Below are positions 21,920 through 23,128 of a stretch of DNA of 47,688 nucleotides, piece after piece. The stretch is from Candidatus Poribacteria bacterium. Its GTDB lineage: Bacteria; Poribacteria; WGA-4E; UBA9662. The notes under the pieces were generated by a model. That model was not told the origin of the DNA and did not search any database. It saw nothing but the letters and a program-made list of their open reading frames with translations. Both the position numbers and the translations under genes were made by a program. The stretch's first letter is position 1; every line of letters begins with the position of its first letter. The DNA lies in assembly GCA_036339735.1 (NCBI GenBank), contig JAYZAL010000002.1:1-47688 (forward strand), given 5' to 3'.

Positions 21920-23128
21920 ATGGCGCTTATTTTACCTGATGGTGGAGAGCTTATTGATTTGATTGTGCCTGATCCACAACGGATTGATAAAAACAAAACA
22001 GCTCAACACCTTCCTTATCTTGACATCAACGATTATGATTTACAATGGATTCATATTCTCAGTGAAGGGTGGGCCAGTCCCCTACGTGGTTTTATGAGAG
22101 AATCTGAATTTTTACAGACACTACATTTTAATGCTATTCGACAGACTGATGGCACGTGGGTCAACCAGTCTATTCCGATTACACTAGATACTACTGAGGA
22201 ACAAAAAAATCGTTTAGACAAGAGTGAACAAATAGCGCTGCGCTTCGAAGGCCAACCCGTCGCAATTTTGAAGGATCCAGAGTTTTATGCTCATCAAAGA
22301 GAAGAACGCTCAGCTCGTACAATTGGCTTAACGAATGTTGAACATCCAACAGTTGAAAGAATTATGGCAATGGGAGAGTATTTAGTTGGTGGTGAATTAG
22401 AGGTGCTAAAACCAATTACTTATGACGATGGCCTCGATCATTATCGTCTGTCGCCAGCCGCACTTCGGGCTGAATTTCAGAAACGAAATGCTGATGCTAT
22501 TTATGCTTTTCAACTACGTAACCCTGTCCATAACGGGCATGCTCTACTGATGAACGACACTAAACGGAAATTGAAAGCTGAAGGCTTCCATAATCCGTTG
22601 CTACTATTACATCCTCTAGGTGGTTGGACAAAAGAAGATGATGTACCATTAGACATCCGTATGAAACAACATGATGCAGTCTTAGCAGACGAAATTCTAG
22701 ATCCCGAAACAACTATTGTTGCTATTTTTCCGAGTCCGATGATTTATGCTGGTCCGACTGAAGTTCAATGGCATGCCAAAGCTCGCATTAATGCAGGAGC
22801 TGATCACTATATAGTTGGTCGAGATCCGGCCGGGATGAGCCACCCCAATACGGGAGGTCCCATATATGACCCATTCCATGGAATGAAAGTAATTCAATCG
22901 GCTCCAGGTCTAGACCGACTCAAGATTATCGAATTTCGATTCGCAGCTTACGATATTAAAGCTGAACAGATGAGTTTCTTTGATCCCAGTCGAGCGGGTG
23001 ATTTTATTAGTATTTCTGGTTCTAAAATGCGAGAATACGCTCGAAATGGAGAATCACCTCCCAAAGGTTTTATGGGTGAACAGGCTTGGAAGGTCGTGGC
23101 TGATTACTATGATAGTTTACCTAACTAA
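21920..23128 (+). CDS. sat: Sulfate adenylyltransferase (ATP sulfurylase), plant/animal-type
   Basis: [47 protein letters not shown]; RBS aggag at 21907-21911. Confidence 0.95.
   Translation: [402 protein letters not shown]

Follow-up and report, generated by a model that had tools for sequence, protein, structure and literature searches.

The ATP sulfurylases (ATPS) of plants and animals form a lineage that has so far been treated as restricted to eukaryotes, of likely eukaryotic origin and without a known bacterial relative, at least in the available text of Patron et al., 2008 (PMC2275785). The same text presents the ATPS of marine Synechococcus and Prochlorococcus as a proposed eukaryote-to-cyanobacterium transfer. 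Here, we analyzed a sulfate adenylyltransferase (Sat) gene from a Candidatus Poribacteria genome, located within a window of 47,688 nucleotides (the whole stretch of DNA analyzed), whose product had been described in an initial annotation as a plant/animal-type ATP sulfurylase encoded in a bacterial chromosome. Our reading, to which we give a probability of roughly 0.6, is that this gene encodes a working, stand-alone Sat of the eukaryotic lineage, which is resident in marine Poribacteria, where it has replaced the ordinary Sat, and which was acquired by ancient eukaryote-to-bacterium transfer. Apart from the bacterial genes, this lineage comprises plant and glaucophyte ATPS together with the sulfurylase part of PAPS synthases from animals and protists.

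Identity and chromosomal residence of the sat gene

The gene, a eukaryote-type (plant/PAPSS-clade) sat, spans positions 21920..23128 (+), stop codon included, an assignment based on the ORF, Pfam, TIGR00339, PDB scores and tree position. As first described, its ORF is intact, starts with ATG, encodes 402 aa without interruption by introns, and is preceded, 8 nt before the ATG, by an AGGAG ribosome-binding site (21907..21911, +). Only two Pfam domains were found in the protein, namely, a PUA-like N-terminal domain (PF14306, PUA_2; aa 5-164; 21932..22411, +; 151 bits, cut-off 27) and the ATP-sulfurylase catalytic domain (PF01747; aa 174-395; 22439..23104, +; 222 bits, cut-off 24.3), the latter over the same range in a whole-genome family search. 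With TIGR00339 the score is 378 bits (cut-off 323), and domain order, cut-offs and motifs all place the protein in the homo-oligomeric Sat/ATPS family (PF14306 + PF01747; TIGR00339).

According to solved Sat structures, the loops (Q)xRNPxHxxH and GRDxAG are catalytic, and both are intact in the window Sat. First, the nucleotide-binding loop is contained in [11 protein letters not shown] (aa 197-207), where regular expression and alignment locate the motif [10 protein letters not shown] (aa 198-207; 22511..22540, +) in place of the QTRNPxHRAH of the ordinary type. Second, the other loop reads GRDPAG (aa 300-305; 22817..22834, +; regular expression and alignment), which is GRDHAG in the ordinary type. 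All motifs quoted in the initial annotation occur in the translation, and the contrasting pair, QTRNPxHRAHE and GRDHAG, is indeed carried by the ordinary Sat of other Poribacteria and by ordinary representatives. In a 24-row alignment, GRDPAG and an H.GH loop were present in 20 out of 20 eukaryote-type rows (HNGH in 18, HAGH in two SAR-type rows), and HRAH with GRDHAG in four out of four ordinary rows.

The plant/animal character of the enzyme was borne out by a PDB search, in which soybean ATPS (4maf) scored 552 bits and human PAPSS1/2 493-498 bits (about 497), versus 118-162 bits for the other full-length-matched Sat chains of bacteria, fungi and archaea. Identity to solved structures is 60-65%; identity to plants and glaucophytes is 60-63%, to animal PAPSS 55%, and to ordinary Sat 28-34%, with 29-32% for the ordinary type of Poribacteria. 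Plant proteins align from residue ~50-98 onto ORF residue 2-3, which puts the start of the ORF at the end of the N-terminal extension of plants, close to the start of the mature plant enzyme, as had been proposed. APS kinase (PF01583), which defines the bifunctional PAPS synthases, is absent from the 402-aa protein, and the fold differs from that of the heterodimeric CysD/CysN ATP sulfurylase. These features suggest that the product is a stand-alone sulfate adenylyltransferase, which would convert ATP and sulfate into APS and PPi. The label '3'-phosphoadenosine 5'-phosphosulfate synthase' (KEGG K13811-style naming), which the source attaches to the relatives P0021 and P0316, is an over-annotation, because PF01583 is missing and the relatives encode APS kinase as a gene of its own; given by automatic pipelines to eukaryote-type bacterial sat genes, it wrongly implies a fused kinase. 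No Rfam or tRNA matches were obtained in the window, and a promoter/terminator scan returned 8 promoter-like sites versus 9.2 expected and 3 terminator-like sites versus 3.3 expected.

The neighbors are bacterial, as had been stated, and none of those described is a sulfur gene. Upstream of sat lie an FtsX/MacB-like permease (20364-21014, +) and a LolD/MacB-like ABC ATPase (21059-21784, +), both identified with NCBIfam. Downstream, a PhyH-family dioxygenase (23184-24041, -; Pfam PhyH) is followed by modC (24052-24933, -), whose best NCBIfam match of 220.9 bits falls below the cut-off of 285, and by modB (24930-25604, -), a Mop-domain protein (25601-25999, -) and modA (25996-27012, -), all three over their NCBIfam cut-offs. 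The permease and ATPase pair (20364..21784) adjoins sat in three further genomes of the family (G058, G059 and G060), and the downstream block from PhyH to modA (23184..27012) is collinear in G059 and G060, two same-genus genomes in which collinearity with the window extends ~8 kb on each side of sat.

The closest named proteins of the window Sat are eukaryotic, and its source genome, G000, is a Candidatus Poribacteria MAG of 107 contigs, 92% complete and with 2.4% contamination, features that would fit misbinned or mis-assembled eukaryotic DNA from an alga, a plant or a sponge host. However, the gene has neither introns nor a transit peptide, it has an AGGAG site, and its flanks are collinear in the two other same-genus assemblies. 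Moreover, a seawater contig from an independent run spans 21551-23317, crossing both sat junctions, and a second one bridges 20952-22881, so that the flanks are not chimeric. The sat stretch is present in 20 of 24 listed runs (12 studies), of which six are RNA libraries, where its occurrence in assembled contigs is no proof of transcription. Eukaryote-type sat homologues also occur on single, closed bacterial contigs of 4.7-7.0 Mb, and the composition of sat is host-like, with percentiles of 62 for GC and 80 for codon-usage distance among 1661 long ORFs. The animal PAPSS rows form a clade of their own (98/93 in the second tree described below), which discards a sponge host as the donor. Within the reach of contig-level data, eukaryotic contamination or mis-assembly is thus refuted, and we give it next to no credence: a free-living marine lineage of Candidatus Poribacteria carries sat as a resident gene of its chromosome.

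Patchy distribution and slot sharing with ordinary sat

In a genome-by-genome survey of 176 Poribacteria species genomes, the eukaryote-type sat was found in 12, with one match each, and an ordinary Sat, ~30% identical to the window Sat, in 158; the remaining six gave no match, and no genome among the 176 had both types. G000 itself has a single PF01747 match. Among the best 120 matches of two sequence searches, eukaryote-type Sat amounts to ~22 bacterial protein clusters at 90% identity, one of them labelled Candidatus Latescibacteria (MBI4552748.1), and this one NCBI label is what would extend the host range beyond Poribacteria. A contig scan with patterns from P0001 alone yielded five loci, all from Poribacteria. 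When JGI metagenome contigs were scanned with P0022 for a host of the basal bacterial subclade, none of the 32 loci obtained was a close relative; their best whole-length identity was 62%, and those examined were eukaryote-like, that is, APK-ATPS fusions or split, intron-like matches. Our literature search found no publication describing a eukaryote-type Sat in bacteria, and a broad bacterial clade of such enzymes, whose prior description would have lowered the novelty of the gene, emerged neither from the papers searched nor from the sequence data. The cell cartoon of one article (PMC10839748) includes 'PAPSS' for Nitrospinota.

The eukaryote-type sat shares its chromosomal position with ordinary sat in three gene contexts, in all of which the conserved flank is the downstream one. 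First, the plant-type sat of G030 is followed by a Zn-ADH and a LarA-N-like gene, and the same two genes (65-75% identity) follow the ordinary sat of G087 and G021. Second, in G017 the plant-type sat is followed by phosphodiesterase and APS kinase genes, whose counterparts in G005 and G001 (53-57% identity) are neighbors of the ordinary sat. Third, a PHP/CehA-like gene comes after the plant-type sat in G033-G036, G061 and G063, and after the ordinary sat in G032 (73% identity). This last gene had been considered as half of a co-transferred two-gene cassette, an idea that was rejected, as close orthologues also occur in ordinary-sat genomes and adjoin the ordinary sat in G032. The three contexts indicate that the eukaryote-type sat has displaced ordinary sat in place, and, because the slots are common to both, the eukaryote-type gene is clearly secondary within Poribacteria. 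The phylum offers a clean natural experiment in non-orthologous replacement, with isofunctional genes of ~30% identity in the same slot of sister lineages, and invites a comparison of the kinetics, regulation and fitness of both Sat types in sulfate-rich seawater.

Phylogeny and direction of transfer

Three careful trees were built. The first, with 38 eukaryote-type and 11 ordinary rows, took 48 of 86 cut rows plus P0311, leaving out near-duplicate metagenome, partial or redundant representative rows; the second had 49 eukaryote-type and 11 ordinary rows; and the third, outgroup-free, left out the 11 ordinary rows together with the long-branch P0130, P0132 and P0137. An initial tree had left out P0004 (two partial tandem copies) and P0131 (partial), and the ATPS of Synechococcus and Prochlorococcus are absent from the tree rows. 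In the rooted trees, the window Sat groups with plant, glaucophyte and PAPSS rows to the exclusion of ordinary Sat, from which the eukaryote type is split by a 100/100 branch of ~2.9 changes per site; the protein does not group with ordinary bacterial Sat. Prokaryotic intermediates between the two types were sought among the representative-library matches that lie somewhat closer than the remaining ordinary Sat (P0201, P0213 and P0262), and all three have ordinary motifs.

The bacterial rows form one clade in all three trees (95/85, 93/85 and 95/82, respectively), in which the Latescibacteria-labelled protein branches first, then f9, and then f3 with f1. Since this order follows taxonomy, it is compatible with a long history of vertical inheritance in which the gene was lost repeatedly. 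The Latescibacteria-labelled, f9 and f3 forms have a 6-residue insert after GM.HP, which is absent from f1 and from eukaryotes, and the 24-row alignment contains no indel common to the bacteria and one eukaryote group only. The bacterial clade lies inside the plant/glaucophyte/animal radiation, with the glaucophytes as sister group at 96/95 in the first tree and 88/88 in the second; in the outgroup-free tree the support for this sister relationship is below 80%, and the bacteria are part of a polytomy with glaucophytes, streptophytes and a red-alga-plus-animal group.

Two origins were initially envisaged, namely, that a eukaryote passed the gene to a bacterium, or that the bacterial gene is related to the source of the plant/animal clade. 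Both survive these analyses, since the trees nest the bacteria within eukaryotes and approximately unbiased (AU) tests allow them outside. We favor an ancient eukaryote-to-bacterium transfer, whose direction and age are inferred. In the most probable course of events, bacteria would have acquired, once and long ago, an unfused gene of archaeplastid-like type, closest to that of glaucophytes; it would then have spread among Latescibacteria-labelled and Poribacteria lineages, and on arrival, on at least two occasions, would have taken over the chromosomal slot of ordinary sat.

The bacterial clade could instead descend from the prokaryotic source of the eukaryotic ATPS/PAPSS lineage, with a Latescibacteria/Poribacteria-like donor and an early eukaryotic recipient, around or before the time of the last eukaryotic common ancestor, the present bacteria as the surviving sister group, and later movement of the gene among Poribacteria. 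A monophyletic eukaryote group with the bacteria outside it is rejected neither by a first AU test (delta lnL 4.9, p 0.362) nor by a second (delta lnL 1.45, p 0.42), so that the reverse direction of transfer keeps some probability. The unfused state of the bacterial genes, a very short bacterial stem next to a eukaryote backbone that lacks resolution in the second and third trees, and bacterial root-to-tip lengths comparable with those of eukaryotes in the second tree are all in line with such a source, as is the fact that the available text of Patron et al., 2008 (PMC2275785) names no bacterial relative of the eukaryote-only clade. So is the Latescibacteria-labelled protein, the least diverged row, with 62-71% identity to every short-branch eukaryote group and 70-72% to glaucophytes. 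However, all free tree searches nest the bacteria within the eukaryote radiation, twice beside glaucophytes, and rooting on the bacterial stem makes glaucophytes the first eukaryote branch, in conflict with accepted eukaryote relationships. The narrow distribution described above, with 12 of 176 Poribacteria and ~22 clusters among the best matches, and the secondary position of the gene within the phylum also speak against it, as does the absence of mixed motif sets in the ten representative-library proteins checked, which were the weakest eukaryote-type and the strongest ordinary ones among 150 matches.

We thus consider it unlikely, yet worth keeping in view, that the PAPS-synthase/plant ATP sulfurylase lineage of eukaryotes stems from a long-sought prokaryotic source, whose living relatives are the genes from Poribacteria and from the Latescibacteria-labelled genome. 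In that case, the sulfurylase half of animal PAPSS and plant sulfur assimilation would come from a bacterium of a marine group, and two Sat types would be swapping through one chromosomal slot across a whole phylum. This small, coherent bacterial clade, inside or beside the eukaryotic one, would either record how a core metabolic enzyme passed long ago from a eukaryote into bacteria, which we favor, or provide the first prokaryotic relatives able to root the eukaryotic clade, and either meaning makes the question of origin testable.

Pathway role and comparison with known ATP sulfurylases

No APS kinase or reductase is adjacent to sat in the window, as had been noted; in G000, cysH and cysK adjoin each other on another contig (C47), and a sulfite reductase is also present. 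The CysH-type protein, of 254 aa and the only PF01507 match in the genome, carries the CC..RK and SxGCxxC motifs of Fe-S-type APS reductases. The likely role of sat is ordinary sulfate activation for these enzymes: judging from gene content, the window Sat would supply APS to CysH, followed by sulfite reductase and then CysK, and in relatives the eukaryote-type Sat would also feed APS kinase. An APS kinase was not found in G000, at 92% completeness. Since an APS kinase is present in 170 of 176 Poribacteria, the two same-genus genomes among them, this absence is probably an assembly gap, and we dropped it as a biological trait.

The near universality of APS kinase in the phylum, together with the plant-type sat of G017 that adjoins both an APS kinase and a nucleotide pyrophosphatase/phosphodiesterase, could point to a role other than sulfate assimilation, namely, feeding mainly APS kinase for sulfation or reverse action on APS from sulfated polymers. 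A role with molybdate or selenate could likewise be read from modABC and Mop, 1-4 kb from sat in the window, and from the modABC that adjoins the ordinary sat of G045. However, the eukaryote-type Sat is the sole Sat in each genome carrying it, and must therefore also serve the CysH, sulfite reductase and CysK route present in G000; in addition, identity between the two mod systems is only 25-35% and their orientations differ, which fits a chance neighborhood. A different role is thus rather improbable.

Plant ATP sulfurylase is a dimer. Among the known enzymes, plastid/cytosolic plant ATPS (soybean; Arabidopsis-type APS1-4) have the same two-domain layout as the window Sat, QLRNPxHNGH and GRDPAG motifs, and no APS kinase fusion. 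Soybean ATPS aligns over its full length (residues 3-400 versus 2-401), and streptophyte sequences are 60-62% identical to the window Sat. In contrast with the window Sat, which is encoded with a Shine-Dalgarno site in a bacterial chromosome, plant ATPS have an N-terminal transit peptide and start 50-98 residues earlier. The ATPS of the glaucophytes Cyanophora and Gloeochaete (P0024 and P0025), the nearest eukaryote group in two of the three careful trees, is 63% identical and shares a C-terminal FMG..AW motif, but has an N-terminal extension of 80-90 residues that the window Sat lacks. Human PAPSS1/2 (PDB 1x6v, 2qjf and 7fh3) aligns over residues 10-400 and has the same catalytic motifs, but also an N-terminal APS kinase domain. 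Ordinary homo-oligomeric Sat (PDB 1v47, 4dnx, 1jhd and 1g8f; most Poribacteria) has the same Pfam domains, catalyzes the same reaction and occupies the same chromosomal slot in related genomes, but differs in its QTRNPxHRAH and GRDHAG motifs and in a C-terminal Cys/His-rich stretch, which is missing from the window Sat. Finally, in the available text of Patron et al., 2008 (PMC2275785), the Synechococcus and Prochlorococcus ATPS provides an earlier proposed example of an ATP sulfurylase that crossed domains into marine bacteria, but from another eukaryotic lineage, the type of chlorophytes and secondary algae, whose relatives are fungal and bacterial Sat; the plant/animal clade, eukaryote-only in that account, is widened in host range by the bacterial, chromosomal sat described here.

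The sulfurylase gene and its chromosomal setting

The open reading frame at 21920-23128 (+), sat, comprises 402 codons from an ATG start, with AGGAG 8 nt upstream. Its product consists of the Pfam domains PUA_2 (residues 5-164) and ATP-sulfurylase (residues 174-395), with no others, and scores 378 bits against TIGR00339 (sulfate adenylyltransferase; NCBIfam cut-off 323). When compared with all PDB chains, the best match was soybean ATP sulfurylase (4maf; 552 bits over residues 3-400), followed by the sulfurylase domains of human PAPSS2 and PAPSS1 (493-498 bits), whereas the remaining Sat chains matched lengthwise, from Aquifex, yeast, Penicillium, Thermus, Allochromatium, a methanogen and one unnamed source, reached only 118-162 bits. 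Thus, the plant/animal-type ATP sulfurylase that the initial annotation had placed here is real. Every plant/animal-type motif then quoted was found in the translation, and the motifs quoted in contrast, QTRNPxHRAH and GRDHAG, are carried by the ordinary Sat of other Poribacteria, namely, the usual homo-oligomeric type. The proposal that the frame begins about where the mature plant enzyme does agrees with the 50-98 extra N-terminal residues that plant and glaucophyte proteins have before this point.

A mis-binned or chimeric origin of sat is ruled out, as far as contig data allow, by the following observations. First, the source genome (G000; 4.32 Mb in 107 contigs, 92% complete, 2.4% contamination), of which the window is contig C2, has two relatives of the same genus, G059 and G060, in which every gene within ~8 kb either side of sat is collinear, at 68-99% protein identity. 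A scan of species-representative genomes with sat gave five loci (70-97% identity), on contigs of G058-G061 and G063, all of family f1. Second, the stretch 20300-24100 is present in 20 of 24 listed public runs (12 studies), all labelled as marine or seawater metagenomes except for one without label; 17 of these have at least half of the sampled words, and RNA libraries account for six. When four public runs were aligned to this stretch, one DNA contig covered 21551-23317, reaching from the last part of the ABC ATPase gene through all of sat into the first part of the PhyH gene, and another contig covered 20952-22881. Contigs from an RNA library covered 20300-22644 and 22718-23266, which is compatible with transcription but no proof of it. 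Third, in G030 and G033-G036, homologues (67-69% identity) are carried by single contigs of 4.7-7.0 Mb. Fourth, the composition of sat is unremarkable for its host: among 1661 long ORFs, its GC content (0.424) and codon-usage distance fall in the 62nd and 80th percentiles, respectively, with a somewhat low GC3 (0.299, 5th percentile). We conclude that sat resides in a bacterial chromosome and belongs to the eukaryote-type ATP sulfurylase lineage.

One seawater run, X6, has a 19-nt insert repeating the preceding bases at window position 21877, in the 5' leader of sat, ~40 nt before the ATG. This is a strain variant in a likely regulatory region.

Two Sat types at shared chromosomal positions

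A protein search with sat over all 176 Poribacteria species genomes returned the eukaryote-type enzyme in 12 (67-100% identity, E <= 2e-184), only ordinary Sat in 158 (28-34% identity where listed) and no match in six. The carriers are G000, G059 and G060 (genus g1), G058 (g2), and G061 and G063 (g3) in family f1; G033-G036 (g10) and G030 (g7) in f3; and G017 in f9. No second, ordinary copy was detectable in any carrier with the sat query, which gave one match per genome, and a Pfam family search likewise found one Sat only in G000. With a single match in 12 of 12 carriers, the pattern is one of replacement, not addition.

Three gene contexts hold both Sat types at one chromosomal position, with conservation of the downstream flank only. 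First, downstream of plant-type sat in G030, and on its strand, are genes for a Zn-dependent alcohol dehydrogenase (407 aa) and a LarA-N-domain protein (520 aa), and the same two genes (65-75% identity) follow ordinary sat in G087 (f4) and G021 (f2). Second, in G017 plant-type sat precedes genes for a type I phosphodiesterase/nucleotide pyrophosphatase (480 aa) and an APS kinase (197 aa). In G005 (f5) their counterparts (53-57%) flank ordinary sat, and in G001 (f10; also 53-57%) they are found a short way downstream of it. Third, a PHP-fold gene of ~300 aa, matching CehA/McbA metallohydrolases (97 bits; NCBIfam cut-off 80), follows plant-type sat in G033-G036, G061 and G063, and its orthologue (73%) follows ordinary sat in G032 (f3, g9), where an orthologue of the G030 dehydrogenase (77%) is found slightly beyond. 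Counting by taxonomy codes, we infer that the Sat type has changed at least three times within the phylum. In Poribacteria, then, eukaryote-type sat is secondary and displaces ordinary sat in place.

A fourth, weaker echo involves the window itself, where sat neighbours PhyH and modC-modB-Mop-modA (23184-27012, -), and G045 (f3, g12), whose ordinary sat lies beside PhyH and modA-modB-modC (locus L024, 4127-7945). These proteins share only 25-35% identity and the operon is oriented differently. The resemblance may be due to chance or may reflect a repeated association of molybdate uptake with sulfate activation.

Probable sulfate activation in the host

Given the intact catalytic loops of the protein and its 60-63% identity to plant and glaucophyte sequences, we infer that its role would be ordinary sulfate activation. 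Elsewhere in G000 there is a 254-aa CysH with CC..RK and SxGCxxC motifs, which we take to be marks of Fe-S APS reductases; cysK directly adjoins this cysH-type gene, and G000 also encodes a sulfite reductase of the ferredoxin type, extended at its C terminus. APS kinase (PF01583) was not found in this 92%-complete assembly, probably because of an assembly gap, since 170 of the 176 Poribacteria, including G059 and G060, have one. The predicted enzyme most likely supplies cysteine synthesis as well as PAPS formation.

Several loci invite further comment. In G017, the cluster at L020 7312-11169 continues after APS kinase with a flavin reductase gene, and has a sulfatase-modifying-factor (FGE) gene upstream, which looks like a PAPS/sulfation module. 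The PHP-fold gene lies directly downstream of sat of either type in several f1 and f3 genomes (L013 7023-7910 (-), encoding protein P0310; L015 6998-7945 (-); L060 3325-4239 (-)). At its N terminus the product weakly resembles PHP-family 3',5'-nucleoside bisphosphate phosphatase, and it may remove a pathway product, pAp or PPi. Dozens of PHP-like matches in genera g17 and g18 (f4) contain one internal TAA, sometimes TAG (for instance, G175:C3:872178-873026 and G171:C1:1544291-1545139), many of them adjoining a second copy without such a stop; this may be a gene end overrun by the alignment or a conserved internal stop. In the window, 18785-20158 (+) encodes a 457-aa phosphofructokinase matching both ATP- and PPi-dependent models below cut-off.

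Relatives, depth and direction of transfer

Among the best 120 matches in a collection of 5.8 billion protein clusters, 21 were metagenome or MAG proteins (401-408 aa, 64-97% identity to sat), followed by glaucophytes (63-64%) and land plants (60-63%). One further cluster, P0026, includes MBI4552748.1 (NCBI), labelled Candidatus Latescibacteria bacterium, which is 71-72% identical to glaucophyte proteins and 67-70% to those of plants; used as query, it added no bacterial clusters among its best 120 matches. Beyond the 120 best of either search, more distant bacterial members could rank below plants. The spread of eukaryote-type Sat among bacteria is narrow and patchy. None of ten representative-library proteins read for motifs (three eukaryote-type, seven ordinary) had a mixed set. 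Eukaryotic representatives include APS-kinase and APS-kinase/pyrophosphatase fusions; in an unnamed eukaryote-type one, P0138 (929 aa), the sulfurylase is joined to an MFS transporter, and in a coconut gene model, P0004 (595 aa), the catalytic region occurs twice in tandem, each copy being partial.

An exploratory FastTree analysis (84 rows) placed the 34 bacterial rows in one clade, sister to glaucophytes. With IQ-TREE (LG+C20+F+G4 PMSF, 49 rows), the bacterial clade obtained 95/85 and its glaucophyte sister relationship 96/95, with a 100/100 branch between all eukaryote-type rows and 11 ordinary ones. On inclusion of animal PAPSS (seven rows) and unnamed eukaryotic APK-ATPS (four rows), 60 rows in all, these values were 93/85 and 88/88, and the animals formed a separate cluster (98/93), which makes an origin of sat from a sponge host unlikely. 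Leaving out the ordinary outgroup and three long rows (51 rows) kept the bacterial clade (95/82), with the glaucophyte sister relationship below 80, an unresolved four-way split between bacteria, glaucophytes, streptophytes, and red alga plus animals, and the kinase/pyrophosphatase-fusion group apart at 100/100.

Identities are similar within the bacterial clade (64-75%), between bacteria and glaucophytes (60-71%) and between glaucophytes and streptophytes (65-67%). The interdomain event would therefore be old, roughly as deep as the archaeplastid splits if rates were similar. The alignment holds no indel common to the bacteria and only one eukaryote group. A 6-residue insert (ERL.A.G-like) after GM.HP (window protein residue ~308) occurs in the Latescibacteria-labelled, f9 and f3 forms; f1, including the window, is without it, as are eukaryotes, except that two protist rows have small insertions. 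Either the insert arose at the root of the bacterial clade and was lost in f1, or the tree is in error.

The initial annotation had offered two readings, a eukaryote-to-bacterium transfer or a bacterial relative of the source of the plant/animal clade, and both still stand. A constraint that puts all eukaryote rows in one clade with bacteria outside was not rejected in either of two AU tests (delta lnL 4.9, p 0.362; delta lnL 1.45, p 0.42). On the second reading, the bacteria would be sister to the whole eukaryotic lineage and relatives of its donor. We regard this possibility as less likely, because the bacteria fall among eukaryotes in every unconstrained tree search, because the lineage is universal across eukaryote supergroups and rare in bacteria, and because rooting on the bacterial stem makes glaucophytes the first eukaryotic branch, against accepted relationships. 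These arguments favour a single ancient eukaryote-to-bacterium transfer of an unfused archaeplastid-like gene, to which we assign a probability of roughly 0.6, the data themselves leaving the direction open.

Streptophyte plastid ATP sulfurylase was previously placed in a eukaryote-only clade with metazoan and stramenopile fusion proteins, and a eukaryote-to-cyanobacterium transfer was proposed for the other lineage of the enzyme (Patron et al., 2008; PMC2275785); the same picture of lineages is given by Prioretti et al., 2014 (PMC4220642). A comparison of Poribacteria reports assimilatory sulfate reduction in the phylum and, in the accessible part of its text, is silent on Sat type (PMC8546597). 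A Nitrospinota cell cartoon bears the label 'PAPSS', uncommented in the accessible text (PMC10839748), a lead that eukaryote-type Sat may occur there too. In the main text of openly accessible papers we found no description of a bacterial clade of eukaryote-type Sat; searches pairing Poribacteria with sulfate adenylyltransferase or ATP sulfurylase gave only papers naming each term one to three times, and those on eukaryote-to-prokaryote transfer and K13811/PAPSS nothing relevant. The enzyme is of a known kind in an unexpected host. The analysis adds the phylum-wide sharing of slots by two Sat types, together with a bacterial clade, small in size, through which the origin of the plant/animal sulfurylase can be tested.
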